In this document: positions 4,467-32,659 of the stretch, piece by piece | Layout: every line of letters begins with the position of its first letter | Numbering within the stretch: the stretch's first letter is position 1 | Virus record (IMG/VR): IMGVR_UViG_3300045988_026316 | DNA from: a virus | DNA length: 64,000 nucleotides | Strand: one strand, 5' to 3' | The notes under the pieces: generated by a model | The model's database searches: none | What the model was told of the DNA's origin: nothing | Seen by the model: the letters and a program-made list of their open reading frames with translations, nothing else | Translations under genes and position numbers: made by a program

Positions 4467-4558
4467 CGCTGGGGGCAGGACTCGAACCTGCTTCCATAAG
4501 GATCCCATCTGGTATTATTCCAGACTTCACTTTGCTCTACCTCATAAGCTACTCCCGC
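4467..4558 (-). tRNA. aberrant type-II tRNA-like element (possible pseudo-tRNA)
   Basis: It has T arm GCAGG-TTCGAGT-CCTGC, D arm GCTT-ATGAGGTA-GAGC and a long variable arm. However, the acceptor GCGGGAG/CCCCAGC has 2 mismatches, 9 extra nt precede the anticodon stem, and the loop AATAATA has A33/T37. Confidence 0.35.
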
Positions 4559-6333: not shown

Positions 6334-6446
6334 TTAAAAAATTATTTTTTTATAAAAATTTTCACATCTCATGAAACCAAAACGCTTAGTTAATACGTTA
6401 CAGCCACGAGAGCTTCGGGGGAATATTATATTATATATAAACTATA

Positions 6447-6639
6447 TTAGATTATATTAGCTAATATAATAACATGAGTCTAAGTAGAATAGTAAGACTA
6501 ATAATATATATACATGAGTCTCATGATAATAAGTAAGACTATATATAATATAACATGAGTCTCCTTAGGAAAGTAAGACTATATAATATTACTTCTTACG
6601 TCCCTACATAGACTCATGAGACTAATTAGATTATATTAG
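6447..6639. repeat. hairpin-repeat cluster bracketed by 14-bp direct repeats
   Basis: Three direct copies of ACATGAGTCT-N9-13-AGTAAGACTA lie at 6472-6500, 6512-6541 and 6553-6581, and AGTCT/AGACT are self-complementary. An inverted copy TAGACTCATGAGACTA lies at 6609-6624. TTAGATTATATTAG occurs at 6447-6460 and 6626-6639. Confidence 0.65.
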
Positions 6640-6644
6640 ATAAC

Positions 6645-7121
6645 ATGAATAAATTTGAATTAAGTGCTATTTTGTATTATGCGGATTTCTTATCTATGCA
6701 GTAGAAATCAGTTCCTGTAACAGATACATGCAAATATTTCTATATACACAAGATTCCTATGAATATTTCGTATATAGCTGGTGTTGATCCCATGTACGAT
6801 AAACACAATCCTTATGTTGTACAAGCAACAGAGACATATGGAATATTAAAAAAATAGTTTGGAGAAGATGGAATTTTATCTTTTTTAGACAATATTTGCA
6901 ACCTAGGAGTCTCAGGATGCGTTACAGGAGAGTCTATGTTAAAACACATACATCGAGATAGTGATAGATACATACGAAGCAAAGCATATAGAAAATACAA
7001 CGAGTTTAAATAGAATCAATCATATCACTATGTCACACAAGGAGAACACGGACCAGAAACAAAAGAGTGCACAAAATATGTAGCGCACGTCTAGGCTAAA
7101 ATCAACAGCAACAGATCCTGA
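6645..7121 (+). CDS. Panacea/SocA-like (DUF4065-like) protein, 4 in-frame TAG
   Basis: The frame runs from ATG 6645 to TGA 7119-7121. In-frame TAGs lie at 6702, 6855, 7011 and 7092. The N-terminus LSAILYYADFLS...VPVTD resembles Panacea-domain N-termini. Confidence 0.55.
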
Positions 7122-7192
7122 ATATGTAAAATCTGTTGATCGTATGATACAAGCATAGAAGAAGTTATTAAGAATATATAACAACGTTGATT

Positions 7193-8676: not shown

Positions 8677-9320
8677 TAGGATCACATGATAGTTATACGT
8701 TCCATAAAGCTACTAAGGGTATATACAATAAGTCTTTAATACGTAGAACATGGAAAGCTCAAAATATGAGTTTGGACGAACAGTATGAGCATGGAGTTCG
8801 TATGTTTGATGTACGTGTTTGTAGAGACGGATGGAGATGGAGAGTGTGTCATGGAGCGGCTGAGTTCAATGAAACATTTGCAACAATATTATCAATATGT
8901 CACTTCTTTGAGTTACGATATCCAGATGCTATCTATCGTATATGGCTCGAAAAAGGATCAAAAGATGTTGAGAGAAGGTTTATTGCAGAAAGTACAAGTC
9001 AACTCTGTTCGTTATGTGATTTATACCATAATCTATGGAGAGTTGGAATAAAATCGTATAAAGAATGGACGAACGGTATTTGTAACAACAATGATAGTTT
9101 ATACAACAGAGGTTATCTATTTGCTAAAGATGCTCCTTGGAGTGGTAATTGTCACGAGTTACACGGTACAATGTCTTTCAAGAATTACTTCAAAGGATCT
9201 CTTGAGTCTCAAGCTAAAAAGTACAACAGAAAGATTATGAGTACTGTTCCAAAAGATCAGATATACGGAAAAGAACATCTTTATCTGATTGATTTCGTAG
9301 ATCAAATACGCGTTAAATAA
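8673..9320 (+). CDS. PI-PLC X-domain-like phosphodiesterase (putative)
   Basis: GSHDSYT...QYEHGVRMFDVRV matches the N-terminal catalytic signature (G-x-H-D-S ... Q..G.R.FD.R) of PLC-like phosphodiesterases. Confidence 0.5.
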   Translation: MIGSHDSYTFHKATKGIYNKSLIRRTWKAQNMSLDEQYEHGVRMFDVRVCRDGWRWRVCHGAAEFNETFATILSICHFFELRYPDAIYRIWLEKGSKDVERRFIAESTSQLCSLCDLYHNLWRVGIKSYKEWTNGICNNNDSLYNRGYLFAKDAPWSGNCHELHGTMSFKNYFKGSLESQAKKYNRKIMSTVPKDQIYGKEHLYLIDFVDQIRVK

Positions 9321-9384
9321 ACGCGTATTTAAGATCAATTGCGTTGCAATTAAGATCAAATACATACTTAAACAAATTTATTCA

Positions 9385-9412
9385 GGGCCTACGTTAAGTA
9401 GGCTCTTTTTTA
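9385..9412 (+). terminator. rho-independent terminator
   Basis: Stem GCCTAC (9387-9392) pairs with GTAGGC (9398-9403) around loop GTTAA, followed by TCTTTTTTATT. Confidence 0.6.
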
Positions 9413-9414
9413 TT

Positions 9415-11520
9415 ATGCCTAAAATAAGACAAACAAATAGAATGATGAAAGTTGGTAATTAGTGGTTACCAGCTTTCTTAAACAGTGTCAACGGATCTCC
9501 AACATATACGTATATGAATGATTAGGGTCAGTGGGCTGATGCATCTGGTAATACGTACAACGTTGAATATCCATTAGATGAAGTAACTGTTAAATACGAT
9601 CCTAAAACAGGTGGGTATATCAATAAAGCTGCACCAGATTATTGGAGACAATATGGTCAGCGTAGAATGCAATAGACTGCTGGAAATGTTGACAAAGTTA
9701 TAATGGGTACCGTCGGAGCTGCTACAGCACCGCTATGGCTACCTGAGATATACGGAGCTGGGTTGGTACTTGGTGGTAATCCAGCTGTGCGATAGTTTGC
9801 AAGTCAGATATTGTACGGATTAGGTGCCGATGCAGCATTGAAAGCAACAACAGGTTATGATTATTCAGAAGCAGGTTAGAGGTTGTTTAGTCCTGTGATC
9901 CAAAAAATCGGTTTTAGTAAGGGTACATCTGATATTATCGGTCAAATTACAGGCGGTGCGATGAATCCTGGATATTACATGCCTGCAATAAAATTAAACG
10001 CTTAGAATATATTAGACCCTGTTGCGGACTATTTAGTTAAACCGTTTTCGTAGTATAGCAAAAAGCTTCAGATCTTAAATAACGCAGTTTATCCAACAAT
10101 CGGTACTCTGGCTGGAGGTGTTGCTGGAAATTAGCTTTCTAAACAAGACGTACTTCCTGAATATATGAGACCGTATGCTGAACCGGTTGGAATGTTATTG
10201 GGTGGTGGTATAGGTTCGTTGTTGAAGTATGCACCTATACCCAATTCTTATGTTTCAGATATGCTACGATATCCCATAATTGCACCGTATGAAATGGCTA
10301 GAGGAAACTATGTATTTGGGTCAAAAACTAAAGCTATGCTCGAACGTGCGAAACAAGAATCTAAATATTTTAACACGGCATATGATAATCTTGTTGATAA
10401 ATATATTAATAAAAAAGCGTATCCTGGGTTTGGGGATGTGAGGCCTAGGTTTGAAATGGAGATTGCCCCTAAAAACGGTAGTTACAAAGCTTATTATGAT
10501 TATCCAAGTAATACAGTAATAACGCCAATGTTTAATAACAAAAACACCAGAATAGCAATCCCGTTCGATATATATAGAAAAGGCACAATTTCACACGAAG
10601 CCACACATGCATTATACAATAGAGCTGCATAGTATAATTCATTTGATGGCGCGGGAGCTTTTACTAAACGAGGTATTGCGACCAATACTATGACACCGCT
10701 TTCTGTTGCCTTACCAGGAGAATAGTATTGGGAAATGAATCCTGTTTTACGTGATAATCCTGTATACAGAACACACTTGAATAATGTTGAAAACATAAAC
10801 ATCCCTCTATCACATAAACATGACGCTGCTTAGTATAAACAGTGGATGTCTAATCCGGAAGAATGGCATGCTGAATATAATAATATAATGAGTAGAATCA
10901 CCGATGGATCAACAGTTCCAGTGAGTGATCTGACTAGTAATCAAAGAGATATTGTTCTCAACTACTTCATGAATAAATTCGGGGCGAATAGAACCCAATC
11001 CAACCAAGCTCTCGACATGATAAATGCATATCAACGTGATGTCTTAAAAGGAGCTAATGTTAGCGCCAATATCACAAGACCTCATGCAATCAATCTCATG
11101 AATACGATAACGACCCCGCCCCCCAACGCTAAGACGATAAATTATGATCAATTACGTGATAACTTTAAAAAGTTTCGTAAGTATATCGAGAAATTAAATC
11201 ACATGTATGGAAAGGATGTGAAACGCATCGGTTTAGAATACGCAACAGGACAGGGATTAGAACGTATTGGAGATTTTATGATGAAACATACAATTGGTAT
11301 GGATTCAGACCAAGCATCTTACAAGCTATTATCTCCACTCGTGGAACCGTTAGATATCACAGATGGTTAGAAAGAAGGTTTATATAGATTTGGATCTCAA
11401 TATGTGAACCCGGGAAATTGGTTTAATCCATCGAAACGCTTAATTAACGGATATATTATCGATGACATGTATAATTTTGCACGGCTTCCATATGACTGGT
11501 TTACAAATCAGAAGAAGTAA
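9415..11520 (+). CDS. HExxH-motif protein (putative zincin-like metallopeptidase), 12 in-frame TAG
   Basis: The 701-codon frame runs from ATG 9415 to TAA 11518-11520 and joins track ORFs 10165..10632 and 10846..11370. It contains 12 in-frame TAGs and no TAA or TGA. The HEATH motif lies at 10594-10608. Confidence 0.7.
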
Positions 11521-11810: not shown

Positions 11811-12047
11811 ATGGGATATGTTCTTAAAATCAAGAAGTTAGTCGAGCACGAGTGGAAAACTACCAAGGTTAGAACCTACGTCAACGGTCAGGATGGCAGG
11901 CCTGTTTTGGCCGAAGAACGCGAAGTTCCTGCCACAGTTTGGAGATGGGTTGCTTCTCCCGTCGAGCCTACACTCGAAGCTTTGTTTGAGAAGTACGGGA
12001 AATGGTGCTCCACGCACAAGGACAACTGGTGCATCGCTCCGCAGTAA
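11811..12047 (+). CDS. hypothetical protein (GC-rich island)
   Basis: Track ORF ending in TAA. It is followed by the hairpin GGAATGGGCC-TTCG-GGCCCTTCC (12048-12070). Confidence 0.55.
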   Translation: MGYVLKIKKLVEHEWKTTKVRTYVNGQDGRPVLAEEREVPATVWRWVASPVEPTLEALFEKYGKWCSTHKDNWCIAPQ

Positions 12048-12171
12048 GGAATGGGCCTTCGGGCCCTTCCTTGCTTCTCTTCTTGCTTCCCTTCTTGCTC
12101 TTATTTTGCTTATTTCTTGCTGTTTCGTCAAACAAGACATGGCTCGCTCGTTCCTCGCTCGCCCTTGCTGT

Positions 12172-12208
12172 TTCGTCAAACATGCCTGTTCCTATAGATT
12201 GGCGACGG
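12172..12208 (+). promoter_or_regulatory. 37-bp promoter-like box, copy 2
   Basis: The sequence is TTCGTCAAACATGCCTGTTCCTATAGATTGGCGACGG. The left half CTTGCTGTTTCGTCAAACA is also duplicated at 12116-12134 and 12164-12182. Confidence 0.35.
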
Positions 12209-12403
12209 TATAACATCGTTTATAATCGTTGCGCGTGCTGCGCATAGCACGCTATACCTGCATACGTGTAGGTGCGGGCGGTACAGACATGCGCGTCTGT
12301 ATCGTATAGAGTGGCATGCCGAGATACTCCCAGCAACATTTGTGTTGTCTACACGGGGAACGGCGGTCATGTCCGTGTTAACCCGCTGTTAAGTCAGCTG
12401 GTC

Positions 12404-12468
12404 GGGCATTATGGTACATTCTTGCACAAGTTGCTTGTAATGCACAGGTTCGATTCCTGTGGTGTCCA
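12404..12468 (+). ncRNA. D-arm-less tRNA-like element TLE1
   Basis: Acceptor GGGCATT/GGTGTCC has 4 Watson-Crick and 3 G.U pairs. The T arm is ACAGG-TTCGATT-CCTGT. The box ATGGTAC is shared with TLE2. The internal hairpin ACAAG-TTG-CTTGT is not an anticodon arm. Confidence 0.4.
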
Positions 12469-12547
12469 CTATCCCCCTGTGAAGGACGATTTTAAAATTC
12501 CCATATTCACAATCATGTTTAATATATGGCCCTTCGGGGTCATATTC

Positions 12548-12610
12548 GGGTGCTATGGTACTCTGTCAGATGATAGCGACAGTGCGTAGGTTCGATTCCT
12601 ACGGCATCCA
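12548..12610 (+). ncRNA. D-arm-less tRNA-like element TLE2
   Basis: Acceptor GGGTGCT/GGCATCC, T arm GTAGG-TTCGATT-CCTAC, and internal hairpin CTGTC-(10 nt)-GACAG. It ends 48 nt before ATG 12658. Confidence 0.45.
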
Positions 12611-12657
12611 CAGCGAGAAGGGCAGCGAGGTCGTTGCCCAGCTAAACACACAAAATC

Positions 12658-13347
12658 ATGAGAATGCAAATCGAAAACGTCTACGTGCTCACAGCTCACG
12701 TAGGTACACAGAATGTGGAAACCAAGTACGTCAAGCTCGATCTTATCGACGCAGACGATCCTTGGGGCGAAAGCTGTACTATGACCATCTTCGAGTCTAC
12801 GGACAAGGCTATGGTCAAATACCTCACCAGTATCTATGCTGACGCTCAGGCGGACGGCACAGATCAGTTTGGGCAGGTTAAGTATGCTCCTTCTATCCTC
12901 AAGGATGCCACCAAGGCTCTTCCTGACAATAGAAAGGTCATACCAGGCATCGTGCGAGCTGAGGCTCCTACTCCTGGCGGCGAGCCGTACATTCGTACGA
13001 CTGAAGTCAACGGAGTGCGCGTACCTGCAAAGAACGCTGTCCCAATCAACTCTCTTATGCTCTGGTGCCGCAAGGTCAAGGACAATGAGACTGGTGAGAT
13101 GAGCTGGAAGTCTGGCTGGTCTCCAGCCGAGCGCATGACGAGCATCATCGCACACCTCTACAAGCCTTGTCGCGAGACAGGTTTGCCTGAGACTGGCGAG
13201 ATTGTCAGTGCGCCCGTTCAGGCTCCAGTTGCTCCTCAGATGCCGCAGCAACCTGCTCCGCAGCAGCAAGCTCCTCAGACTCAGCCCCAACAGGCTCAGC
13301 CTCAGCAGCCACAGCAAGCTCCGCAGCAACCTACTGCTACATTCTAA
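12658..13347 (+). CDS. hypothetical protein with Gln/Pro-rich C-terminal tail
   Basis: Track ORF in the GC-rich island. Its composition is protein-like, unlike the Leu/Arg/Ser-rich antisense ORF 12553..13395. Confidence 0.65.
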   Translation: MRMQIENVYVLTAHVGTQNVETKYVKLDLIDADDPWGESCTMTIFESTDKAMVKYLTSIYADAQADGTDQFGQVKYAPSILKDATKALPDNRKVIPGIVRAEAPTPGGEPYIRTTEVNGVRVPAKNAVPINSLMLWCRKVKDNETGEMSWKSGWSPAERMTSIIAHLYKPCRETGLPETGEIVSAPVQAPVAPQMPQQPAPQQQAPQTQPQQAQPQQPQQAPQQPTATF

Positions 13348-13419
13348 CCACTCTTCCACGCCTATCGAGGTCGGGCGTTCTAAATACGACCTCATTCATC
13401 TTCTTAAACACTCACGACA

Positions 13420-13779
13420 ATGAAGAACTCCCTTGCTCTTACAGCAATCATAGCTATTTGCCTATTCGTAGGCTTCGTAGCTGGCCATGCTATTGGCACA
13501 ACTGACGGAAATGCAGCCGCTTACACTCAACAAAAGCGAGCTACTACCGCCGAAGACTCTCTCGCTATCTACCGAGAATTCGCTGACCGAGCACTCACAC
13601 TGCTCGAAGCTCTCGGCATCGATGACGACTCAGTCGATCCCTTCTACGACGGCGACGACGCCAAGGCATACGCAGTCTCAAGCGCATACCGACGCTTCTG
13701 CGACGCCTACAACAAGCTTGCTGGTATCGACAGCTTGCAACAGCTGCCTCCTGCGCAAACGCGCACGGAAGCACGCTGA
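13420..13779 (+). CDS. membrane-anchored protein, paralog of 15124..15462
   Basis: It has an N-terminal hydrophobic anchor. It shares the pattern DP(F/Y)Y(D/N)G...AY..(F/Y)C(D/E).(Y/F)NK with the 15124 product. Confidence 0.65.
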   Translation: MKNSLALTAIIAICLFVGFVAGHAIGTTDGNAAAYTQQKRATTAEDSLAIYREFADRALTLLEALGIDDDSVDPFYDGDDAKAYAVSSAYRRFCDAYNKLAGIDSLQQLPPAQTRTEAR

Positions 13780-13814
13780 CCACCTCGGACACGGGCGCAT
13801 GCTCGTGCCGGTGG
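13780..13814 (+). terminator. nested GC hairpin after stop codon (possible terminator)
   Basis: CCACC..CACG-loop-CGTG..GGTGG follows TGA 13777-13779 directly. There is no T-run. Confidence 0.35.
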
Positions 13815-14063
13815 GGCCTATTCGTATAATATTGCAGATAGTCAAATTCAAAAACCAAGAACCTCGCGATAGTATTAACGGTAAATCGCACAGAACAATG
13901 CAGTACTTCTATATTGTAGGTTACACGCTGATTGGCAACGATCTTACATTCAGACTCGAACCACAATAAATAGTTTATACTCATTCACACCAGGTTTGGG
14001 TTTTATACCCAAGCTTGGTGCTACATAATAAAATCACAAATATTCAATCAAAAAAAGAACAAA

Positions 14064-18906: not shown

Positions 18907-19338
18907 TCTATCATCAGATAGTATCTGTAAATAGAACTACAAAGTCCAACTCAAGAGCCTAAGAACCATGAGCGCTTTTGAAATATTAATAACCCGATGT
19001 ATCACTCAATATGACCGCAGATGGATCATGATTGTTTGGAGCCGTAGAAACGTATTTTAAAAGCATAAGAATCGACTTATCACACAGAGCCATGAGCCAA
19101 TGTGGGACGAAAACACTCTAACAGGGGTGGATAAACTACTGTCGTATCAAATGATCGAACATGCAAGAACTATAAGTCTTTAAGGCCCCTACATATGCGT
19201 GTAGGTTCCGTCTTGAAGTGTGTTTTATCAAAGAGAATATAGTTAGCCCAAACAGAATCTTGAATCAGTTTTGGAATCTCTAACTATCGCAGTATTTCGT
19301 AGCGTGCTGCATCCATAGGGAGTTTGGCCATTCTCTAT

Positions 19339-19399
19339 GGAACTATGTGTGGGGATGAGTTAATCATACAAGACGTGGGTTCGAATCCCACTAGGTCCA
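19339..19399 (+). ncRNA. D-arm-less tRNA-like element TLE3
   Basis: Acceptor GGAACTA/TAGGTCC pairs at 6 of 7 positions. The T arm is GTGGG-TTCGAAT-CCCAC, and there is an internal imperfect hairpin around AGTTAAT. Confidence 0.4.
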
Positions 19400-19626
19400 C
19401 GAATTCCATAAGTTTTTTAATTGATGTTTTTTAATTATTGTTTATTATCGTAACTCATAGGGTAACGGTTCGTGAGAATAGTTACTCATTTTATGGGCCT
19501 AACTGGTTTTGATTGTATGAGGAAGTAAATCCGTTAACTGCGCATTAAACATCAACTGGCGATTATAATATCGTAGATTACACTCACATAGCGTAAGTGC
19601 TAATCAGGTTCGACTACCAAAGTGTC

Positions 19627-19673
19627 ATGGGCGAGTAATAGGACTGTATGGGGTTCGATCCCCCACGCCCAAC
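19627..19673 (+). ncRNA. acceptor/T-arm minihelix TLE4
   Basis: Acceptor ATGGGCG/CGCCCAA pairs at 6 of 7 positions. The T arm is TGGGG-TTCGATC-CCCCA, with only a 15-nt connector. It ends 16 nt before ATG 19689. Confidence 0.4.
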
Positions 19674-19688
19674 TAAAACAGAATCAAT

Positions 19689-21040: not shown

Positions 21041-21074
21041 ACAGGAGGGAGTAGGCAGATTGAGGCCCTCCTGT
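21041..21074 (+). terminator. 9-bp GC hairpin between genes
   Basis: ACAGGAGGG pairs with CCCTCCTGT, followed by TTACAA. The T-tract is weak. Confidence 0.4.
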
Positions 21075-21104
21075 TTACAATGCACACAAAAGTGCAGATT
21101 GTGT

Positions 21105-21659
21105 ATGAACTTACCAGACATTACTCCAGAAGAAATAACTCTGGTTAAGAACGCGAAAGAAGGAAAACCGCATTCCTTCACTGCTCTATTCAAGAGATAT
21201 AAACATTTTGTAGATCATGTGCTTTACGAATATGTAAAAGACATGGACGAGGCACGTGATTTAACAAATGTTGTATTTCTTAAGGTCTACCAGAAACTCC
21301 CAAGCTTCACTGAATATAAATCATTTGGTGGATGGTTGAGAGTTATCTCAAATCGAGTTGCTGTGGATTATTTACGATTACGTTCGAAACACCGATTTAC
21401 AGAAGATGTTGAAAAGGACTGGGTTGTACCGAAACAGAAAGAAGTTAATGAGACCGATCTGATCAATCGGTTGATTTATCAGGAGTCTGTGGACTACTTC
21501 AAAACCCTACCACATTCTCAAGGTCGTATAAACGAACTATATTATTGTAATAGTTACACAGTCGATGAGATTTCAAAAGCCTTATTCGTGCCCCTAGGTA
21601 CTGTAAAATCAGTCCTATTTAGGACACGTAAGGAATTACGTAAACTTTTTAAACATTAA
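21105..21659 (+). CDS. ECF-type sigma-70 family factor
   Basis: Region-2-like FTALFKRYKHFVDHVLYEY...DLTNVVFLKVYQKL...GWLRVISNRVAVDYLR and region-4-like YTVDEISKALFVPLGTVKSVLFRTRKELRK. ATG 21105 is preferred because the track TTG 21060 lies inside the upstream hairpin. Confidence 0.75.
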   Translation: MNLPDITPEEITLVKNAKEGKPHSFTALFKRYKHFVDHVLYEYVKDMDEARDLTNVVFLKVYQKLPSFTEYKSFGGWLRVISNRVAVDYLRLRSKHRFTEDVEKDWVVPKQKEVNETDLINRLIYQESVDYFKTLPHSQGRINELYYCNSYTVDEISKALFVPLGTVKSVLFRTRKELRKLFKH

Positions 21660-22143: not shown

Positions 22144-23769
22144 ATGAGCAAGAAGAACAAGAAGAACAACAAAGTTGTGACACCTCCCGTAGTTGAGACT
22201 AAGCAGGAGGAGAGTGAGGTTAAGGACACGAATGTCCAGGTGGATAACGAGCAGGATGCTGAGCAGAATGCTGATACCAAGGTGGAGACTCCGATGGTTC
22301 CACCTCAGCTCGATTTGCCGCTCATGCCGAGTACTGATGTGCAGGCAAACGGCCTCGATCCTAACCATCAGGTGGACCTGATCAGGATGACGCACGAGTA
22401 CTTCAAGAACTCTCCTGATCTTATTCAGAAGTTCGACATTTCGCAGGGTGTTGTTGACAACATGAATCATGTCAACATGATTGCCATTGCCGCAGCATGG
22501 GCCAATGAGATGACATTCTCTAAGACCCCGTTCGCAGGAAAGCTGCGTACCGCAGTGCTGCCTGAGATGGCAAGTGCTCTTAAGGAGCTCGGTATCAAGG
22601 CAGATAAGATTCTCGCCTTGCCGTCTTCATCTGACGGTACTACAACCGTCACGTCTAAGGATGTTCAGATTCCTAAGACCGTGAAGGACCAGATGAAGGC
22701 CGAGAACAAGATCCAGCAGGAAAAGATTGAGCTCGACCCCACGAAGATTCACAACAAGACTGAGGTCTTTAAGACCGTCCAGTATCTTCTTACGAACAAG
22801 GGTGCTGTTTACAGCAACATCAAGGCCGCTGTGAACTTCTATCGTTCATGGCTTCTTATCCAAGCTAAGGATGACCAGGCCGAGAAGGACCGCATCAATG
22901 CACGTACTGTCAAGGATATCATCCTCGACATTGCAGACTTCACTAACGCATGTCCTTTCGTTCTGAAGGGTGTTGGTGGTTATCTGCTGCGTCTTACGAT
23001 GACTCACAATAGTATTGTTCCCGCATTCTGTATTATGCGTAATACGGTGCGTAACAAGGTGACCGGAAAGACGACATGTGACGAGCAGGAGATTGCCGAC
23101 ATCTGCTATGCAGTTGTCAATTGGGCAGCTAATGCTCGTATCTCTGAGAAGAAGAAGAACATCGAGGTCCTTAGCGCAGACAAGAAGCGCAACAAGGAGG
23201 CTATCGACGGTGTCAATGCTGACATCAAGGCCATTGAGGACGTTATCTCAATGCTCGATAACCCGAACAGCGACTTTGCTGACAACGTTCTTGACAACCT
23301 CAAGAGCGATGATGCAATCGTTGTTAAGCACGCTCAAGAGGCGTTCGGAATCATCGCTAAGTGCTACTATCCAGGCACTGACCTCCGCAAGCGTTACACC
23401 AACCTTGCGGACAACGTAAAACAACTTGCCGGAATCATCACGAATCTCTTCCGAGATCCGATGAGTCCGCTTAGCAACTTCAACATCGCAAATCTCGACC
23501 AGGAGCTCATTGAGGCTCCGAAGGACGAGGAGAAGCCTGCTGAGACTACTGAGAAGACTGACGAGTCTTCTGAGGAGTCTAAGGAGACTTCCGAGGCAAA
23601 CAATCCTGAGAAGGCTGACGAGTCTTCACAGGATTCCAAGGAGTCTGACGAGACTACTGAGGAGACGCCTGCAGAGGAACCATCTAAGGAAGAAAAAAAA
23701 ATGACTCCGAAGATGTCGCGCAAGATGAAGAAGGCTGCGAAGAAGCTCGGTCTTTCGCGCAAAAAATAA
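22144..23769 (+). CDS. hypothetical 541-aa protein with basic N- and acidic/basic C-termini
   Basis: Track ORF with strong G/C-ending codon preference and the upstream box CATTATCAAAATG. Confidence 0.7.
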   Translation: MSKKNKKNNKVVTPPVVETKQEESEVKDTNVQVDNEQDAEQNADTKVETPMVPPQLDLPLMPSTDVQANGLDPNHQVDLIRMTHEYFKNSPDLIQKFDISQGVVDNMNHVNMIAIAAAWANEMTFSKTPFAGKLRTAVLPEMASALKELGIKADKILALPSSSDGTTTVTSKDVQIPKTVKDQMKAENKIQQEKIELDPTKIHNKTEVFKTVQYLLTNKGAVYSNIKAAVNFYRSWLLIQAKDDQAEKDRINARTVKDIILDIADFTNACPFVLKGVGGYLLRLTMTHNSIVPAFCIMRNTVRNKVTGKTTCDEQEIADICYAVVNWAANARISEKKKNIEVLSADKKRNKEAIDGVNADIKAIEDVISMLDNPNSDFADNVLDNLKSDDAIVVKHAQEAFGIIAKCYYPGTDLRKRYTNLADNVKQLAGIITNLFRDPMSPLSNFNIANLDQELIEAPKDEEKPAETTEKTDESSEESKETSEANNPEKADESSQDSKESDETTEETPAEEPSKEEKKMTPKMSRKMKKAAKKLGLSRKK

Positions 23770-23773
23770 GTAC

Positions 23774-24262
23774 ATGCGCAACGAAGATGGCAGCCGCTTT
23801 CAAAGAGTTGTTTTCGTAAAAAACAAAAAAGCTATCAAAGCTATGGGTAAAATATCAGTTTTGTCGTTCTGCATAATATTCTTATTCTTAGGGATCAAGG
23901 GTATGCGCAGTAACTTGACGATCAGTGGCCCAACTCAGACAGTGTCTGCAAGTCAGCCACGTGCACCTGGTTTTGACATAAACCATTTGCGCACTAACGC
24001 CTTGACTCAACAGCGAGATACTGTACGTGATACAGTATACGTTGAATCAAAGCAAAGTTCAACACCAATGAGCGTAACGGTTGTGGCACCCAAACGCAAA
24101 CAGATTAAGTATCGTACTCGCAACAAGTCTTATCTGTTCATAGCAACACCACGGGATCGTGCAAAGCTCTCCCTCGATTCAGTACTGGCGGACAGTACTA
24201 TGCGCATATCAGAACTGACATGTGTAGGATCGAAAAACGTAAGAAGCTTAGCGAGGGATTGA
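23774..24262 (+). CDS. hypothetical membrane-anchored protein
   Basis: Track ORF with the hydrophobic segment ISVLSFCIIFLFLGI. The start is uncertain. Confidence 0.5.
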   Translation: MRNEDGSRFQRVVFVKNKKAIKAMGKISVLSFCIIFLFLGIKGMRSNLTISGPTQTVSASQPRAPGFDINHLRTNALTQQRDTVRDTVYVESKQSSTPMSVTVVAPKRKQIKYRTRNKSYLFIATPRDRAKLSLDSVLADSTMRISELTCVGSKNVRSLARD

Positions 24263-25900
24263 CAAGGTCTCCCTCGGTCAGTACATTTTAGTTATGTCTC
24301 ATTAGCATAGGTACTATATCGGTAAGACCACAGCTTGTCACTGAATCCGATGAATTAGACACGGTCGAGGATAATCAACCGTTAAACGACAACCAACAAA
24401 CTTGATCCGAGAATATGTTAACCCTCTCAAAGGGTGAGAAACTCAAAAGGTAGGATGAAATGCTATGAATGTGAAAAACTCATAGTAAGTAGGGTCAGCG
24501 TTGTATCAACCCTACTCTGTACATACATGAGAACCGTCTGGCGATGTGTGTATATGAAAAGACGCATAAGTCTCAAGAAGAGCAAAACGAACCGTATCGA
24601 TAAGTACAACAATGATACTAAGTTGTGCATTAACGTACACGAGTTGACATACATACAATTCCAACCTGTATGTAAGTATCAATAGCTTAGTTTAGTGTCA
24701 CACGCCTCCAAAGCGTGCATTGAGGAACGAAGAATTTCACGAAGACTATGAGAGTACTACTCATAGGGTGACCATTAGGATAGCCGTACGGAAGTCCCAC
24801 TGGTTCGATTCCAGTGATCTCAGTTGAATGGGAGACCGGGGATGGGGTGCAATAGTACAGAGTGAGACCGCCAGGCTTTAGTCGTTTATGCGGTATATAA
24901 AAGTAAAATGACCAGACTCTCGATGCAGGAGAGTAGTAGGAGTGAAAGCCTTACCCGACACGAGACCGGGTTCATAAGTCTGATGTTAAGTTTACAACTA
25001 GCCCTTAGCAAGCAATGTTGTATTCAAGCGAAAGCGAGTAGGGTGACGCCGGATAGTCAGCCTGAGCTACAGGATACGTAGCAAACAAAAAACAGAAGAA
25101 CTGATCGATTCGAAAACCAACATGCCAAGTTGGAAGGACCTCCGTCAGTTGTTAATACGAATAAGTTTTAGTAGTGTTAAGTATATATGGTACTTTTTAA
25201 GACTATGATACGAATGGTTTGGAGCCAGTAAAAATGTAGAATAAACGCCTACAAGTCGTAGCAGAATGCTTTTAACTTATCATATCAGTCTCCTTGACAC
25301 GAAATCAACCGACAGTCGTAGACGCATTTATAGAGTTAATTAACATGTTTAACAGTATGTCCTCCGGATGGAAGTAACGCTCACTATATCATACGTTGTA
25401 AGTATGTGAATGAGAATGGATAAGCTATCGTTGTAAGATAGACACTGCCTGTACCTCCCGGAAAGTTACTAATGGAATACACTATGTCGAATAGATAGGT
25501 AAAGCGCATACAGCAAATATGCGTGTATCGAGTCTATAGAACATATATCGTGAACCTAGTAGGCAGCTTCGTAGCCCATGAGACGCAGTGCAAAAGCGTA
25601 TGCAGGTTTGGTTCGGTAACGCGGCCATAATCACACTCCCCTGTCTCGGGATGTTGTGATAAGCAAGAAGTGGGTGATAATTAGTAATAGCGATAGGGTT
25701 GAAGTCCCAAGTAATATTTCATGAAAAAGAAGAACTGACAGCAAAGTCAGGGCAAAAAAGCCGTAGATACGCTTAGTATGTTCGATAATGAAACGCACTC
25801 CTCGCGTACTCTCTACTGGAAGAGAGCAGGGTAGGTTTTCGAGTAAGACGGATGATTTATGTCTCTACTATAATCATCTTGAGGAAACAATAGGCTTTTG
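24263..25900 (+). ncRNA. ~1.6-kb ORF-free, hairpin-dense region (candidate large structured RNA)
   Basis: No credible ORF lies on either strand. Many 5-8 bp stems are present, for example CTATGAG/CTCATAG, GTAGGGT/ACCCTAC, the GNRA hairpin GCGAAAGC, and the T-arm-like ACTGG-TTCGATT-CCAGT at 24799-24815. The box GTTTGGAGCC lies at 25217-25226. Confidence 0.35.
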
Positions 25901-26387
25901 TTGCTTTTAGCCTTTTATGCAAGCAACTCGGATGGAAACACAAAATATATCCGATCTTTCAATTTTCGTTGGTTAAGCCAGATTGAATCGAAATTTTGTC
26001 AACGTATTTATACTATGAGCATTAGTCGAGACGATTTGGTTGTTAGTAAGAATCATAAATACAAAAACTATTGGAGGTCTAGAAGAGTCCCTGAACCAGA
26101 CCTTCAAGAGTTATACGTATACACAGAAGTGTCAAGGATCATTCAAAGCTTTCCTGACGGTGACTATAGAGTAAGGGCTTAGCTAATCCTACCGTTGGAT
26201 TCCCAAATACACTGATTGAGCTTCTTAAAGGAATATAAAGGTGTAGGCTATAGAAAATAAAAGCGGCACACCATGTGTGCATCCTTTGAACGTATGACTT
26301 AAAACAAATAAACCGTTTCAGAGATAAATAACATTGTATAATTCGTATCGTTGGTCAATCACTGACGATCTCAAAGAGGATACGAAC

Positions 26388-27014
26388 ATGGAGAATAAAG
26401 TAAAAATTGACGCAGCAGTTCTGCGGGGTAATCGTATGGAGTTGAGTAACATTGGTGGAACGCTTGGTGGACGGTTCTTCCGCCTTAACAAGCACGCAAT
26501 TGACGATGAGTATGGTAATCTCATCGCACAGATTCGTAACACGGGTAACAAGGAGTTGTGCCTCAACCGAGGCATCAACCGGTACGCAATTCAGGGCTTC
26601 GATATTCATCGCATCGAGTTCAAGAACGCAGGTGACGGCACGCCGTGCGTCTTTATCAACGAGGGTGACAAGAACTCTCGTGGTGAGGACATGAGTGCAG
26701 TATGCCCCGTGGGCAATCGTAACCGACCGTTCACGGAGGCTTCCGAGGAGAGTATTGGCGAGGCTATTGAGTCTCAGCGACGGGATCTTATCTTTGCTGA
26801 TCCCGATGGTGTGGTGGATATCGTAAATCGCTACAACCAGAATGAGATGGCACGAATCGACAGTCTCATTCAGCAGCTCACCAAGGCTAAGAACAACATC
26901 GTTCAGACGATCGAGAACAACAACAAGCGTGCCATGGAGTACAAGAAGGAGTTACGGGACAGTAGTAAGACCGTGACATCCGCATCGATCGTTGGATCCA
27001 TTAGCGTCGAGTAA
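26388..27014 (+). CDS. hypothetical protein
   Basis: ATG 26388 lies in the frame of track ORF 26334..27014. It shows G/C-ending codon preference. Confidence 0.65.
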   Translation: MENKVKIDAAVLRGNRMELSNIGGTLGGRFFRLNKHAIDDEYGNLIAQIRNTGNKELCLNRGINRYAIQGFDIHRIEFKNAGDGTPCVFINEGDKNSRGEDMSAVCPVGNRNRPFTEASEESIGEAIESQRRDLIFADPDGVVDIVNRYNQNEMARIDSLIQQLTKAKNNIVQTIENNNKRAMEYKKELRDSSKTVTSASIVGSISVE

Positions 27015-30754: not shown

Positions 30755-32659
30755 ATGGTAATACATAACAAACCAGTTATCGTCTACGATATTGAGGTGT
30801 TTCCGAATGTGTTTCATTGCACTTGCAAAAACACTGAAACTGGAGAGTATAACAAGTTCGAGATTTCGCAACGTAGAATTGATATTGATAGTTTGGTTGA
30901 GTTCTTCAATAGAGATTATCTCTTTTGTGGATACAACAATAAACGCTACGATGATGTTGTAATCAACTATATTATCATGTATCGAGAACCATTATCCAAA
31001 TCTCCTATATGGAGATGTACGGATAGTATCTACAAGCTGTCTCAAACAGTCGTATTGTCCAAAGACGGAGATACTAAAGCATTTAGACGATGGATGTTCG
31101 CAAATTATTTCGAATCTATGGATTTACTAACTATGCTATTTAGTAGTAAGTTACGTGTAGGTTTGAAAGAAATGCAAATAACGATGTTCTATCATAATGT
31201 CCAAGAGTACGATGGAGATTTCAATGAATTTCTTCCACTTAACCAGATTGACAAAATGATAGAGTATAACATCAACGACGTAGATTCAACTGAACAGTTG
31301 CTGAATACGTTACAAAAGAAAGGAGAGATCGATGTACGGTTATTCATGGAAGATGAGTATAATATTAACGCATTATCCATGGACAGCGTCAAATTCGGAG
31401 AAACGATGCTTCTTAAGGAGTATTGTAAACGTACACACCAAAGGGAGAGTATAGTCAGTGAACAAAGATCTCCAATGGATTACGTACCTCTGAAGGACGT
31501 TATATTACCGTTCATTACATATAAAAATCCGATATTACAAGGTGTTTTGGAAGATATGAAACGACAAGTCGTTCCTACCAGAAAAGAGCTTATTCCAAAA
31601 GGCCAAAAAGCATACGAGAAGTGTTTTGTTATCTCGAAAACGCGCTACTCTGTGGGAGTTGGAGGAATTCATTCTTTAAACAAACCAGAGATCTTCGTTC
31701 CAAGTGAAGGTGAGTACATAGGGCATGCAGATGTCACCTCAATGTACCCATCTTTTATTGTACAATACGAGTGGGTACCCCGTCACTTAGGAAAAGAATT
31801 TTGGGAGCTGTATAAGCATGTATATCATGAACGTATAGCTGCCAAACGTAGTGGAGAATCAGTCAAGTCGACAGCTCTAAAGCTTGTACTGAACTCAGTA
31901 ACAGGGAAAATGCAGCAAGAAACCTCATGGATGTATGATCCATTTTCAGTGTTTAAGATTCGTATCAATGGACAATTGGTACTTCTTATGCTTGTAGATA
32001 GATTGCTCCAGTTGGGCTGTAGGATTGTGCAGGTCAATACAGATGGTGTCATGTATGTTGCTAAGGAAGCAGATAGGAGTGGTGTCCAATCAGCAATCCA
32101 TGAAGTAGAGCAACTTACACGTTTAGGTTTCGAAACTGATGACTACGAAGCGTTTTATCAGTACGCTGTTAACGATTATTTCGGTGTCGTTAAAGGGTAT
32201 TCTCAATCCAAGAATCCAAAATTGATAGAGAAAAAAGGAATGTTTATCACAGATGCCAAACTAGGTAAAGGTCTTGCACCATTGATCATACCTAAAGCTG
32301 TGATTAACTATTTCCTTACAAAACAAGATGTGTCAGAGTTTATCAAAAATGCTAATAACATTGATGATTTTTTAATGACACAACGCGTTGATAAGAAGTT
32401 CAAGGTTGAATACGCAGATAAGTATATTCAGCGAATCAACCGCTTCTATGCATCAACAAATGGACACTACTTGTTTAAGGTCAAATATGAGGATGATGGT
32501 CCTCATTATTCGAACATGCTAACAAAATCCGGCATAACGATCTTGAATAAGTTAGATTCCAAACCAATTGAAGACAGAAAGATCAACTACAGCTATTATA
32601 TATCAGAAGCTCGTAAGATTATAAATGATCTAAAATGTCGACAGTTAGAACTCTTTTAG
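30755..32659 (+). CDS. family B DNA polymerase with 3'-5' exonuclease domain
   Basis: Exo I VYDIEVF, Exo II GYNNKRYDDVV and Exo III EYNINDVDS. Polymerase motif A is DVTSMYPS, motif B is KLVLNSVTGKM and motif C is VNTDGV. The stop is TAG 32657-32659, immediately followed by TAA. Confidence 0.9.
   Translation: MVIHNKPVIVYDIEVFPNVFHCTCKNTETGEYNKFEISQRRIDIDSLVEFFNRDYLFCGYNNKRYDDVVINYIIMYREPLSKSPIWRCTDSIYKLSQTVVLSKDGDTKAFRRWMFANYFESMDLLTMLFSSKLRVGLKEMQITMFYHNVQEYDGDFNEFLPLNQIDKMIEYNINDVDSTEQLLNTLQKKGEIDVRLFMEDEYNINALSMDSVKFGETMLLKEYCKRTHQRESIVSEQRSPMDYVPLKDVILPFITYKNPILQGVLEDMKRQVVPTRKELIPKGQKAYEKCFVISKTRYSVGVGGIHSLNKPEIFVPSEGEYIGHADVTSMYPSFIVQYEWVPRHLGKEFWELYKHVYHERIAAKRSGESVKSTALKLVLNSVTGKMQQETSWMYDPFSVFKIRINGQLVLLMLVDRLLQLGCRIVQVNTDGVMYVAKEADRSGVQSAIHEVEQLTRLGFETDDYEAFYQYAVNDYFGVVKGYSQSKNPKLIEKKGMFITDAKLGKGLAPLIIPKAVINYFLTKQDVSEFIKNANNIDDFLMTQRVDKKFKVEYADKYIQRINRFYASTNGHYLFKVKYEDDGPHYSNMLTKSGITILNKLDSKPIEDRKINYSYYISEARKIINDLKCRQLELF

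Follow-up and report, generated by a model that had tools for sequence, protein, structure and literature searches.

Known Large RNAs and the ORF-Free Locus

GOLLD (RF01998) is a very large, multi-domain "ornate" noncoding RNA of phages, about 800 nt long, with no known protein partner and no known function, for which a cage-like 14-mer assembly has been shown. ROOL (RF03087), of about 580–660 nt, is a large structured RNA of phages and prophages with many covarying helices and likewise of unknown function. Both sit near tRNA islands, and ROOL forms a nanocage without protein (PMC12286853). OLE (RF01071), also large and ornate (about 600 nt), is a membrane-associated bacterial RNA of extremophilic Firmicutes that adjoins the partner genes oapA, oapB and oapC; its conserved loops are protein-binding sites, and it shows that ornate RNAs can serve as ribonucleoprotein scaffolds. 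Group II introns and other large ribozymes (0.6–2.5 kb) have a multi-domain fold with many hairpins around junctions, and T-loop modules occur in tRNA, tmRNA, RNase P and T-box RNAs.

The DNA analyzed here, referred to as the window, is a stretch of 64,000 nucleotides from a crAss-like phage (Crassvirales, Suoliviridae; IMG/VR record IMGVR_UViG_3300045988_026316). No phage order is more abundant in the human gut than Crassvirales; to our knowledge, its RNA biology is entirely uncharacterized, as are the majority of its genes. The hosts of these phages are gut Bacteroidota, and no Suoliviridae isolate is known to us. A 2-kb stretch of the window without ORFs most likely encodes a very large folded RNA, conserved across Suoliviridae and outside the described families.

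The locus, as inferred, resembles GOLLD in being a very large multi-domain phage RNA without a known protein partner or function, in lying in a region rich in RNA genes and in combining one conserved region with less conserved parts. However, at about 1.9 kb it is about 2.4 times longer, it is found in crAss-like phages of gut Bacteroidota whereas GOLLD occurs in Lactobacillales, Mycobacterium and marine phages, and no data on cage-like assembly exist for it. With ROOL it shares the phage setting, the many covarying helices, the unknown function and, less clearly, a position near tRNAs, which lie 1.6–4 kb away; it is about three times longer, without evidence of pseudoknots or oligomerization. 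It is large and ornate like OLE, but neither bacterial nor known for membrane association or adjoining partner genes. Although its size and architecture are comparable to those of large ribozymes, it differs from group II introns in having no domain V/VI match, no intron-encoded protein and no interrupted gene. Since it occupies the same site in every relative fetched, it does not behave as a mobile element. Finally, the hairpin at 24799–24815, with a 5-bp stem closing UUCGAUU, is similar to the T-loop modules, but unlike the T-arm of tRNA or tmRNA it stands alone within a 2-kb RNA.

An earlier interpretation of the bare letters, called here the sequence-only reading, had proposed a giant structured RNA, could match it to neither GOLLD nor ROOL and suggested an Rfam scan. 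With cmscan and Rfam 15, a scan of the whole window at gathering scores gave no match in the gap, and in 23700–26500 no GOLLD, ROOL, OLE, HEARO, raiA, group I or group II intron was detected even at E ≤ 10. Hits at that threshold were limited to sn2524, Entero_CRE and a beta_tmRNA fragment of 17 nt, each far under its gathering score; the last, with 10.3 bits where 84 are required, covers the T-arm hairpin only. ARAGORN found nothing in 24263–26387. An assignment of the T-arm-like hairpin to a tRNA or tmRNA gene was rejected, as neither ARAGORN nor the tRNA and tmRNA models find one there. A full-text literature search returned no description of this RNA.

Coding Potential and Selection

The sequence-only reading saw no credible ORF in 24263–25900, which holds for the whole of 24263–26387 and under any genetic code. 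The longest stop-free run between the 162-aa ORF and ATG 26388 is 99 codons, and reading TAG, TGA or TAA as sense (four codes in all) did not create a long ORF in the gap; stop-codon recoding is in use in some relatives. Five small ORFs of the gap, compared by tblastn with 27 representatives, gave matches only at conserved nucleotides, on both strands and with 1–5 stops each. The 94-aa ORF at 25898–26182, already regarded as doubtful, has no homologue in relatives.

Among seven genomes of the window's own clade, 66 of 2125 sites in the gap are variable (3.1%), split by phase as 26/19/21, whereas the flanking genes in the same-clade comparison show 6.6–19.7% variable sites with a strong third-position excess (e.g., 1/2/42). 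With no ORF and no codon periodicity, the gap is non-coding, and, judged from these substitution counts, purifying selection on it is stronger than on the flanking genes. A minus-strand CDS is annotated across the 5' domain in two GenBank relatives, and some GenBank CDSs on the element are spurious.

The gap had also been called exceptional in an otherwise tightly packed genome. It is indeed the longest ORF-poor stretch of the window, but the genome is not uniformly tight, with other such stretches of 0.4–0.85 kb.

Conservation among Relatives

A gap of 2.03–2.49 kb between the same flanking genes is present in about 85 IMG/VR and GenBank loci, counting those in which both flanks were located. 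DNA matches were obtained in 15 GenBank genomes belonging to two subfamilies, Oafivirinae and Loutivirinae, and the annotated gap was verified in 11 of them. In Loutivirinae the gap measures 2.1 kb in the three genomes checked, and only the first ~165 nt of the 5' core can be aligned by sequence. Every relative fetched has the syntenic gap, held at 2.0–2.5 kb; the order of the domains is never altered, and the 5' domain is present in 100 of 120 pattern hits. No further copy of the locus and no single domain of the RNA was found elsewhere in the window.

In eight phages of other genera, the 541-aa flanking protein shows only 26–31% identity, and nucleotide matches in the 10-kb neighborhood fall almost exclusively within the gap. 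In all relatives examined, from two subfamilies, the surrounding proteins are less conserved than the RNA, which must therefore be important for these phages.

About 15–20% of the locus is poorly conserved (25009–25068, 25169–25190 and 25810–26100). The GNRA hairpin noticed at 25028 falls in such a stretch (column identity 0.29–0.5), so that proposal was not supported. Nor is the GTTTGGAGCC box shared with 19034 conserved in relatives: an exact 10-mer occurring twice in 64 kb is the chance expectation by simple arithmetic, and a one-mismatch scan of GTTTGGAGCC gave 6 hits versus 1.7 expected.

Structure and Covariation

The elements mapped along the locus are collected in Table 1.

Table 1. 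Features of the ORF-free interval and of the RNA inferred from it (window positions; a slash separates paired segments).
Feature	Position	Strand	Remarks
ORF-free interval	24263..26387	.	between 162-aa ORF (23774-24262) and next gene (ATG 26388)
Upstream hairpin UAUG-UCUCAUUAG-CAUA	24293..24309	+	conserved loop; probably 5' end region of RNA locus
Clade-specific insert, ~90 nt	24310-24399	+	3' of upstream hairpin, window's clade
5' core domain	24400..24644	+	multi-helix junction
5' core closing helix ACUUG/CGAGU	24400-04/24640-44	+	invariant, hence no covariation test
5' core closing helix AUCC/GGAU	24405-08/24453-56	+	covarying
Hairpin ACCC-UCUCAAA-GGGU	24421..24434	+	covaries: CCC/GGG, GCG/CGC, CCG/CGG, CCU/AGG
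Hairpin GCUAUGA...UCAUAGU	24461..24484	+	conserved UGAAAA-type loop
Hairpin GUAGGGU-CAGCGUUGUAUCA-ACCCUAC	24489..24515	+	loop conserved
Hairpin with loop GAGAACCGUCUGGNGA	24524..24546	+	loop nearly invariant; covarying stem, ACAU/AUGU in window
Two hairpins	24570..24628	+	covarying: GUCUC/GAGC (24570-83), GUACAAC/GUUGUGC (24604-28)
Domain 2	24686..24936	+	34 predicted pairs in 8 helices, compensatory 24/34
Domain 2 helix	24690-93/24725-28	+	
Domain 2 hairpin, loop CUCCAAA	24701-17	+	
Domain 2 hairpins	24746-66 and 24767-85	+	
T-arm-like hairpin ACUGG-UUCGAUU-CCAGU	24799..24815	+	loop fits tRNA T-loop consensus; stem compensatory 4/4
Domain 2 invariant block GACCGCCAGGC	24866-76	+	
Domain 2 helix; hairpin	24881-87/24906-12; 24916-34	+	
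Central covarying hairpins	24954..25247	+	24954-70; 25071-87; 25100-10/25139-49 around 25118-31; 25209-15/25241-47
Linkers	25009-25068, 25169-25190	+	poor conservation; between central hairpins
Domain 3	25390..25708	+	32 predicted pairs, compensatory 23/32
Domain 3 hairpin, loop GUUGUAA	25390-25406	+	
Domain 3 helix	25563-71/25666-75	+	encloses 25585-87/25601-03 and hairpin 25637-51
Domain 3 pairing	25696-98/25706-08	+	
Covarying hairpins	25762..25806	+	25762-84, 25794-25806; adjoin conserved block GUUCGAUAAUGAAACG
Variable linker	25810..26100	+	low column identity; contains most of ORF 25898-26182
3' domain	26112..26284	+	includes hairpin 26119-32
3' domain helix GCUUU/AAAAG	26148-52/26259-63	+	
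3' domain GGG/CCC + AAUCC-UACCGUU-GGAUU	26175-26204	+	
3' domain helix AAAUACAC/GUGUAGG	26205-12/26241-47	+	
3' domain terminal hairpin GCACAC-CAU-GUGUGC	~26267-26281	+	
Leader hairpin of next gene, 7 bp	26343..26385	+	6 compensatory; conserved, around ribosome-binding region AAAGAGGA

Compensatory base changes were found in more than 25 helices across 24405–26284, and three blocks were formally tested: A3 (24686–24936), A4 (25380–25730) and A7 (26095–26300). In A3, 94.1% of cells are paired, versus 71.8% in shuffled and 35–41% in slid alignments, with 24 of 34 pairs compensatory and a covariation score of 0.642 against 0.218 (shuffled) and at most 0.135 (slid). The corresponding values for A4 are 93.5% versus 74.7% and 29–54%, 23/32 compensatory pairs and a score of 0.553 against 0.233. 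None of 500 shuffles reached the observed score in either block. For A7, 11 of 12 pairs are compensatory, and beyond the tested blocks covarying helices lie in 24405–24628 and 24954–26284. Scanning the whole length for helices with at least three compensatory pairs gave 19 on the plus strand, 10 on the minus strand and 0 in row-shuffled alignments. Since the conserved G-U pairs (e.g., U-G in 19/27 and 22/27 and G-U in 18/27 sequences) would be A-C mismatches on the opposite strand, the RNA is assigned to the plus strand.

The six stems listed by the sequence-only reading are all present in the sequence and fared well in this comparison. Those at 24421 (ACCC/GGGU), 24463 (CUAUGA/UCAUAG) and 24490 (UAGGG/CCCUA) are compensatory in relatives, as are all five pairs of both the stem at 24700 (CACGC/GCGUG) and the one at 24746 (CUAUG/CAUAG), and all four of the stem given as 25117 (CAAC/GUUG at 25118). 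The T-arm recognized at 24799–24815 is likewise borne out as a T-arm-like hairpin by its compensatory stem (Table 1); 13 of the 27 representatives have GTTCGATTC there, while UGCAAAU-type sequences take the place of the loop in roughly one third of the relatives. The most widely conserved element of the RNA family is the hairpin at 24524–24546, whose stem reads CCAU/AUGG, CUUGU/ACAAG, CCCU/AGGG or UUAAUAU/AUAUUAA in relatives. In the upstream hairpin, TCTCATTAG is shared by 19/27 representatives, and the window contains it only this once. A further enclosing helix of domain 3 exists in relatives and is unformed in the window's clade as aligned.

The description of the region as dense in hairpins, on the other hand, does not exceed chance for a single sequence. 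Minimum free energies against shuffles gave z-scores of −1.68 for the 5' 546 nt and of −0.27 and +0.44 otherwise; the reverse strand scored −0.32, and no value was significant. Since the folding energy is not unusual, the support for an RNA rests on the comparison with relatives, and thermodynamics alone would miss it.

No covariation-supported helix joins the 5' and 3' halves, and the longest supported helices span about 100–330 nt; several RNAs in tandem are therefore not excluded. Sequence-based alignments of a 2-kb RNA are poor at detecting long-range pairs, and the MAFFT columns of the 5'-core hairpins were out of register. GGUAGGAU (24449–56) is complementary to AUCCUACC (26186–93), and the variants in relatives do not covary. 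Two other long-range candidates were discarded: GUGUC (24695) with GACAC (25441) is window-specific, and the 9-bp complement 25389–97/26289–97 is within chance expectation. When partners of the loops GUUGUAA, CUCCAAA, UACCGUU and the T-loop were sought in each relative as the reverse complement of its own loop, a homologous position recurred in at most 4 of 27.

Possible Transcript Ends and Gene Neighborhood

The locus lies in a rightward early/replication block and is co-oriented with it, in the order sigma-factor-like gene, hypothetical genes, RNA, tRNAs and DNA polymerase. Both neighboring genes, the downstream one encoding 208 aa, have its orientation. A conserved permuted tmRNA is 4.6 kb upstream, tRNAs follow 1.6–4 kb downstream and the DNA polymerase gene 4.4 kb downstream; a tRNA directly adjoins the locus in only 1 of 26 relatives (tRNA-Met, upstream side).

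A sigma-70 promoter scan gave chance-level results, and the Bacteroidetes TAnnTTTG motif is absent upstream of the RNA and of the next gene; no promoter or start site of transcription was identified. A hairpin followed by a U-run is found 70–110 nt before the next gene in most relatives, and after this terminator-like hairpin the gene keeps its own conserved leader hairpin, which probably belongs to the neighbor and lies outside the RNA. The window's clade lacks this terminator, and transcription of the RNA could continue into the next gene here. Several relatives have a hairpin with a T-run near the position of window ~26086, and the representatives share neither a conserved internal terminator nor a conserved internal promoter. 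A simple terminator finder overlooked bulged terminators that are seen in the alignment.

Comparison of nine or ten neighbor proteins with Pfam and PHROGs identified the sigma factor and the DNA polymerase only. A PDB sequence profile search on the neighbor proteins gave no match, and the conserved ones have no recognizable RNA-binding domain. None of the 51 homologues of the 541-aa upstream protein has a Pfam domain. Its AlphaFold model (pLDDT 68.9) predicts an all-alpha core with disordered Lys-rich tails, for which Foldseek returned nothing better than E 0.05 and TM ~0.1, and no functional clue was obtained from this protein.

Alternative Explanations

The comparative evidence (synteny, constant length, selection and strand-specific covariation) agrees with a giant structured RNA, and we are highly confident that the plus strand carries a functional structured RNA. 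This explanation would have failed if the region were variable junk in relatives or if another code or a small ORF revealed a conserved protein, and neither is the case. Whether it is one molecule is less settled. The supported helices are local (up to ~330 nt, none joining the halves), the domains are separated by poorly conserved linkers, the Loutivirinae conserve sequence in the 5' ~165 nt only and the hairpin with T-run near ~26086 recurs in several relatives, as expected for several smaller RNAs or cis elements side by side, namely a ~250-nt 5' core, a second of ~250 nt, a third of ~330 nt and a ~170-nt 3' element, made or processed separately. We consider such an array unlikely, though not to be dismissed, since the total gap length is kept at 2.0–2.5 kb in all lineages, the domain order is fixed with no lone domain elsewhere in the window or in bacterial genomes, and conserved internal terminators or promoters are missing across representatives, while long-range pairs are hard to find by sequence-based alignment of a 2-kb RNA. 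A cis-acting untranslated region, either a structured 3' UTR of extreme length belonging to the upstream operon or a 5' leader of the 208-aa gene, controlling stability, transcription timing or translation, would account for the orientation shared with both neighbors, the lack of a separate promoter, the missing clear terminator in the window's clade and the conserved regulatory hairpin at the next gene's ribosome-binding region. It seems quite improbable nonetheless: most relatives place a hairpin with a U-tract 70–110 nt ahead of that gene's own leader hairpin, the sequence is better conserved than the genes supposedly regulated, and no bacterial or phage leader known to us comes anywhere near 2 kb with invariant loops and over 25 conserved helices.

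The location among the replication genes, with the DNA polymerase gene 4.4 kb downstream, could also suggest an element acting as DNA, such as a replication origin, a packaging site or a protein-binding array, and compensatory stem changes would preserve hairpins of structured single-stranded DNA as well. However, the turning points of the cumulative GC skew are near 6 kb and 40 kb rather than at 24–26 kb, the gap has no iterons, AT-rich tract or significant repeats, and the conserved G-U (G-T) pairs, with 19 versus 10 helices in favor of the plus strand, fit a one-strand RNA. We know of no origin resembling a 2-kb multi-domain structure with T-loop-type motifs, and this explanation is very hard to sustain. 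It is scarcely credible, finally, that the region codes for protein in a decayed or unusual form or for several conserved small proteins, or that it is a self-splicing intron without ORF or another mobile element. Recoding in some relatives could be cited in favor of this, as could the minus-strand CDS annotated across the 5' domain in two GenBank relatives, but no reassignment opens a long ORF, the substitutions have no codon phase, the small-ORF matches contain stops and fall on both strands, and the group I and II intron models fail to match even at E ≤ 10. On either side lie separate genes, the downstream one with its own start and leader, and the constant site speaks against a mobile element.

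Proposed Role and Significance

We therefore regard as likely the proposal that ~24.29–26.29 kb (plus strand) is the gene for a highly structured noncoding RNA of ~1.9–2.0 kb, a conserved component of Suoliviridae, with a trans-acting architectural role included. On the single parts of this proposal, we lean only slightly towards one transcript of at least 1.5 kb, and the architectural or assembly role, drawn by analogy, is tentative and falls short of being probable. It rests on analogy only, because no loop partners were found and the 541-aa protein gave no clue. Transcription, transcript ends, the single molecule, trans action and assembly are all inferred, without expression data.

According to this proposal, the folded RNA would comprise four or more multi-helix domains with variable linkers between them: the 5' core, domain 2 with the T-loop hairpin, domain 3 and the 3' domain (Table 1). 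Its 3' end in most relatives would be the hairpin with U-tract ahead of the next gene's leader hairpin. It might be a stable, trans-acting architectural RNA comparable in kind to GOLLD and ROOL, with the ROOL nanocage as a model, adopting a large tertiary structure and assembling with itself and/or with proteins during infection. The nearly invariant loops GAGAACCGUCUGG, CUCCAAA, GUUGUAA, UACCGUU and UUCGAUU may provide the contact surfaces. A bolder version, which is speculative and rather doubtful, would make the whole ~1.9-kb locus one autonomous RNA forming a defined higher-order particle, either RNA-only and cage-like or a ribonucleoprotein, that works with the permuted tmRNA and the tRNAs; during infection by Suoliviridae it would either remodel the translation of the host or protect the RNAs of the phage. 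If it is indeed one autonomous RNA, it would be the largest structured noncoding RNA known from any bacterial virus and, in prokaryotes, second only to 23S rRNA.

Beside the ornate phage RNAs GOLLD and ROOL, this RNA would represent a third class of much greater size, two to three times longer than these. Their function is a long-standing open question, and an unrelated example from another phage lineage allows a fresh comparison, in which shared features (RNA-gene neighborhood, invariant hairpin loops and multi-domain build) should hint at function. In practical terms, it is a cryo-EM target for large natural RNAs, calls for a new Rfam family and for annotation correction, and, being highly conserved, is suited as a nucleotide marker by which Suoliviridae can be detected.

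Within 185,579 bacterial and archaeal species genomes, the element gave 5 hits only, all binned into metagenome-assembled genomes (MAGs), and no domain occurs alone in bacterial genomes; as far as these searches reach, the element is phage-specific. Four of the hits lie on 40–100-kb contigs typical of crAss-like genomes and one on a 4-kb fragment. Two of the phage contigs are included in Segatella copri MAGs, which is a weak lead to a host.

Non-Coding Status of the Interval

Between the stop codon of the 162-aa ORF (24262) and the next gene's ATG (26388), the longest ORF does not exceed 99 codons, which bears out the ORF-free stretch reported by the sequence-only reading. Reading TAG, TGA or TAA as sense opened no long frame, so a conserved protein under another code, which would have refuted the giant structured RNA proposed there, was not found. 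Across seven genomes from the clade to which the window belongs, 3.1% of the sites in the gap are variable, with a phase split of 26/19/21, and the four flanking genes have 6.6–19.7% variable sites with a marked third-position excess (e.g., 1/2/42). Small ORFs within the gap were not found to be conserved as ORFs. The flanking 541-aa protein is just 26–31% identical to its counterparts in other genera, and almost all nucleotide matches of the 10-kb neighbourhood to genomes of other genera fall inside the gap. The interval is not variable junk in relatives, and these comparisons show it to be non-coding and under strong purifying selection.

A minus-strand "hypothetical protein" is annotated across the 5′ and second domains of the RNA in the GenBank records of two relatives (loci L001 and L013). 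Since the RNA covaries and no ORF conservation is seen, these CDSs are probably spurious.

Covariation and Strand

Loci were reduced to 27 representatives (<~90% identity) and aligned. A whole-length scan for runs of ≥4 stacked pairs with ≥3 compensatory pairs detected 19 helices for the + strand and 10 for its reverse, with 0 in three row-shuffled controls; the helices are distributed over 24367–26385. For domain 2, RNAalifold predicted 34 pairs with double changes in 24 of them; paired cells reached 94.1% vs 71.8% in shuffles and 35–41% with the partner slid, compensatory cells 205 vs 55, and the covariation score 0.642 vs 0.218 in shuffles and ≤0.135 slid. In domain 3, whose helices enclose 100–330 nt, 23 of the 32 predicted pairs are compensatory, with 93.5% paired cells (74.7% in shuffles) and a score of 0.553 (0.233). 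Compensatory changes affect 11/12 predicted pairs of the 3′ domain, where block-wise realignment added three helices. The 5′ core is a junction closed by AUCC/GGAU (GCCC/GGGU or AUAC/GUAU in distant members) with six covarying hairpins in its interior. The RNA is assigned to the + strand because conservation of several pairs as G-U is compatible with that strand alone. Nearly all consensus pairs form when mapped back to the window; the window clade, as aligned, does not form one of the enclosing helices of domain 3. Covariation, which the sequence-only reading suggested looking for in homologous phage regions, is extensive along almost the whole gap, and on this evidence the element is shown to be multi-domain, structured and + strand along almost its entire length.

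All six stems listed from the sequence alone are present and correspond to supported helices in the comparison with relatives, and the T-arm-like hairpin is also covariation-supported. Other details did not hold. The GNRA hairpin at 25028 sits in a poorly conserved stretch, and conservation of the GTTTGGAGCC box shared with 19034 was not found in relatives; in 64 kb, chance alone would be expected to produce an exact 10-mer repeat, although a one-mismatch scan gave 6 matches vs 1.7 expected. Hairpin density alone is not statistically special, since folding is no better than in dinucleotide shuffles (z-scores −1.68, −0.27 and +0.44; reverse strand −0.32).

Anatomy of the Locus

In most relatives, two hairpins immediately follow the upstream gene at the start of the locus, and the loop of the second is GUCUCAUUAGC. 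The window's motif occurs once in 64 kb and is followed by a clade-specific insert of ~90 nt. The family's most conserved element is a hairpin of the 5′ core, whose stem covaries freely around a loop, GAGAACCGUCUGGNGA, that stays nearly invariant across Oafivirinae and Loutivirinae. Four more loops are kept on varying stems, CUCCAAA being recognisable by eye in Loutivirinae as GCGGG-CUCCAAC-CUCGC. No consistent Watson–Crick partner was found for these four inside the RNA, which fits tertiary, protein or intermolecular contacts. In most relatives, the 3′ end is a bulged hairpin and then a U-run, 70–110 nt ahead of a conserved leader hairpin at the ribosome-binding region of the next gene. This terminator is missing from the window clade, whose last element is the hairpin GCACAC-CAU-GUGUGC.

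In the window, the stem of the leader hairpin is UCGUAUC/GAUACGA, with compensatory changes at 6/7 pairs, and a second conserved hairpin, CGUUGG...ACGA, is nested within it. The ribosome-binding region AAAGAGGA, shortly before ATG 26388, lies inside this structure, which likely controls translation of the 208-aa gene. The sequence TCTCCCTCG(AT/G)TCAGTAC occurs as two nearly identical direct repeats, the first within the final part of the 162-aa ORF and the second shortly after its stop codon, ahead of the RNA locus.

Coordinates of the proposed RNA locus and of other features (window positions unless a relative's locus is named)
Feature	Position	Strand	Remark
5′ core	24400-24644	+	
Domain 2	24686-24936	+	block A3
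Domain 3	25380-25730	+	block A4
3′ domain	26095-26300	+	block A7
Helices added in 3′ domain	26148-52/26259-63, 26205-12/26241-47, 26265-68/26281-84	+	
Second upstream hairpin	24293-24309		UAUG-UCUCAUUAG-CAUA
Kept loop CUCCAAA	24706-12		varying stem
Kept loop UUCGAUU	24804-10		T-loop, varying stem
Kept loop GUUGUAA	25395-25401		varying stem
Kept loop UACCGUU	26190-96		varying stem
Poorly conserved linkers	25009-25068, 25169-25190, 25810-26100		
Nucleotide-match patches	24391-24655, 24803-24916, 24956-24988, 25577-25607, 25780-25808, 26139-26245		
Leader hairpin	26343-26385	+	
Direct repeat	24169-24186, 24269-24285	+	100 nt apart
Sigma-factor-like gene	21060-21659		rightward block
DNA polymerase gene	30755-32659		rightward block
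Permuted tmRNA candidate	19310-19687	+	ARAGORN
tRNA call	4467-4558	-	Rfam, 92 nt
ORF-poor stretches	6334-7171, 9318-10134, 18937-19310, 53808-54463		0.4-0.85 kb
GC island	12001-14000		
Overlapping ORFs in GC island	12553-13395 / 12658-13347	- / +	
CDS annotations over RNA	L001 4268-4774, L013 4264-4746	-	GenBank
CDSs with in-frame stops	L002 1932-3488, L013 6058-6663, L014 3469-4035		cr124_1, cr7_1, cr131_1
tRNA-Met gene	L055 6533-6607		
T-arm + acceptor-like fragment	L029 ~6405-6440		no ARAGORN call

Distribution and Synteny

DNA and protein comparisons place the source of the window among crAss-like phages. Eight GenBank phages (Crassvirales, Suoliviridae, Oafivirinae) share ~72–82% identity in patches with the ORF-free region. 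They comprise Bohxovirus, Burzaovirus, Buhlduvirus, Cacepaovirus, Chuhaivirus and an unclassified lemur-gut virus, and in all eight the same pair of gene families flanks a 2.0–2.2 kb interval, unannotated or doubtfully annotated. With a profile built on the 541-aa protein upstream, 80 IMG/VR loci were retrieved, and the gap measures 2.03–2.49 kb at every locus with both flanks located (~85 in all). Searching with motif TGAGAACCGTYTGGNGA added 120 stretches, 100 of them with the 5′ domain (nhmmer); 34 make up a more distant group in which gene order is unchanged and the gap is 2.0–2.5 kb. Its GenBank members belong to the subfamily Loutivirinae (Buchavirus, Buorbuivirus), with a 2.1 kb gap in the 3/3 examined.

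Among 185,579 bacterial and archaeal species genomes, a composite motif matched just five contigs, all binned into MAGs (two labelled Segatella copri): four of 40–100 kb, typical of crAss-like genomes, and a 4-kb fragment. Judged from these matches, the element is therefore phage-specific. It is specific to Suoliviridae and co-oriented with early/replication genes. Its neighbourhood is a rightward block with a sigma-factor-like gene, hypothetical genes, tRNAs and the DNA polymerase. Pfam and PHROG gave no function for the neighbouring proteins; the model of the 541-aa protein has an all-alpha core and disordered tails rich in Lys, without a match in structural search.

Known Large RNAs and Possible Role

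The Infernal scan proposed with the sequence-only reading identified neither GOLLD nor ROOL, and Rfam 15 gave no match to these or to OLE, HEARO, raiA, group I/II intron, RNase P, tmRNA or rRNA models; at E ≤ 10, only noise and a 17-nt T-arm appeared. ARAGORN found no tRNA or tmRNA in the gap. GOLLD and ROOL, for which assembly into RNA-only cages was recently demonstrated (PMC12286853), are the closest analogues. They are phage-encoded and near tRNA islands, with unknown function and no known protein partner, and the setting here may be comparable, with a tmRNA 4.6 kb upstream, tRNAs 1.6–4 kb downstream and, in only one of 26 relatives, an adjoining tRNA-Met. However, the present RNA is unrelated in sequence and fold, and its locus (~1.9 kb) is two to three times longer. 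No description was found in Rfam 15 or the searchable literature, among it the principal comparative study of crAss-like genomes and a survey of structured RNAs from the human microbiome; publication beyond the searched literature is not excluded. The RNA belongs to the known "large ornate phage RNA" kind, without relation to its described members.

The non-coding pattern, covariation and synteny support the proposed giant structured RNA, and that the locus is a functional structured RNA is held with high confidence. Transcription and a single molecule are inferred. The locus would be transcribed into a discrete, trans-acting RNA ending where most relatives have a terminator. One molecule of at least 1.5 kb is only slightly favoured. 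Several smaller RNAs in tandem remain possible: the linkers between domains are variable, and no covariation-supported helix joins the halves. A giant cis-acting UTR can be entertained chiefly for the window clade, where the terminator is missing, but it is hard to square with the size and with sequence conservation above that of the supposedly regulated genes.

A DNA element, a protein-coding region and an intron were tested and are poorly supported: no repeats or iterons were found in the gap and the extremes of cumulative GC skew lie at ~6 kb and ~40 kb instead, coding lacks codon phase, a long recoded frame and conserved small ORFs, and no group I/II model matched. An intron or mobile element was rejected, since no gene is interrupted and the element is never absent in the relatives examined. 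For the structured RNA, an architectural role is the favoured function, given the GOLLD/ROOL analogy and the possibly comparable setting; a large folded RNA would contact its own copies or protein/RNA partners through invariant loops. This architectural or assembly role remains tentative, short of an even chance.

Neighbouring Features

The permuted (two-piece) tmRNA candidate, called with tag GDYNIVDYTHIA*, scores 39.9 bits with Rfam tmRNA_permuted (RF04321; E 2.4e-6), below the gathering score of 47. Since ~9 relatives have the same kind of gene 4–5 kb upstream of the giant RNA (ARAGORN), with related tags (GNYNVVDYTHVA, GNFNVVDYTCVA, DNVNNIVDYTNVA, GNSYIADYTKLAA), it appears to be a phage-encoded tmRNA conserved in Suoliviridae. 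The tRNA-Met gene of locus L055 lies directly against the giant RNA's 5′ end, and locus L029 has a T-arm and acceptor-like fragment at that place. The Rfam tRNA call in the window (29.4 bits, gathering score 29), not reported by ARAGORN, may represent an unusual tRNA or one that carries a long insert.

Relatives cr124_1, cr7_1 and cr131_1 (Burzaovirus/Cacepaovirus) appear to use stop-codon recoding, as inferred from 1–3 in-frame stops (table 11) in annotated CDSs; the window itself does not need it around the RNA locus. Among the other ORF-poor stretches, that at 6.3–7.2 kb coincides with the leftward-to-rightward gene switch and the cumulative GC skew minimum, and is a better replication-origin candidate than the gap. 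The GC island (GC 0.515 vs ~0.36–0.40 around), where long ORFs of the two strands overlap, may be a gene acquired recently.
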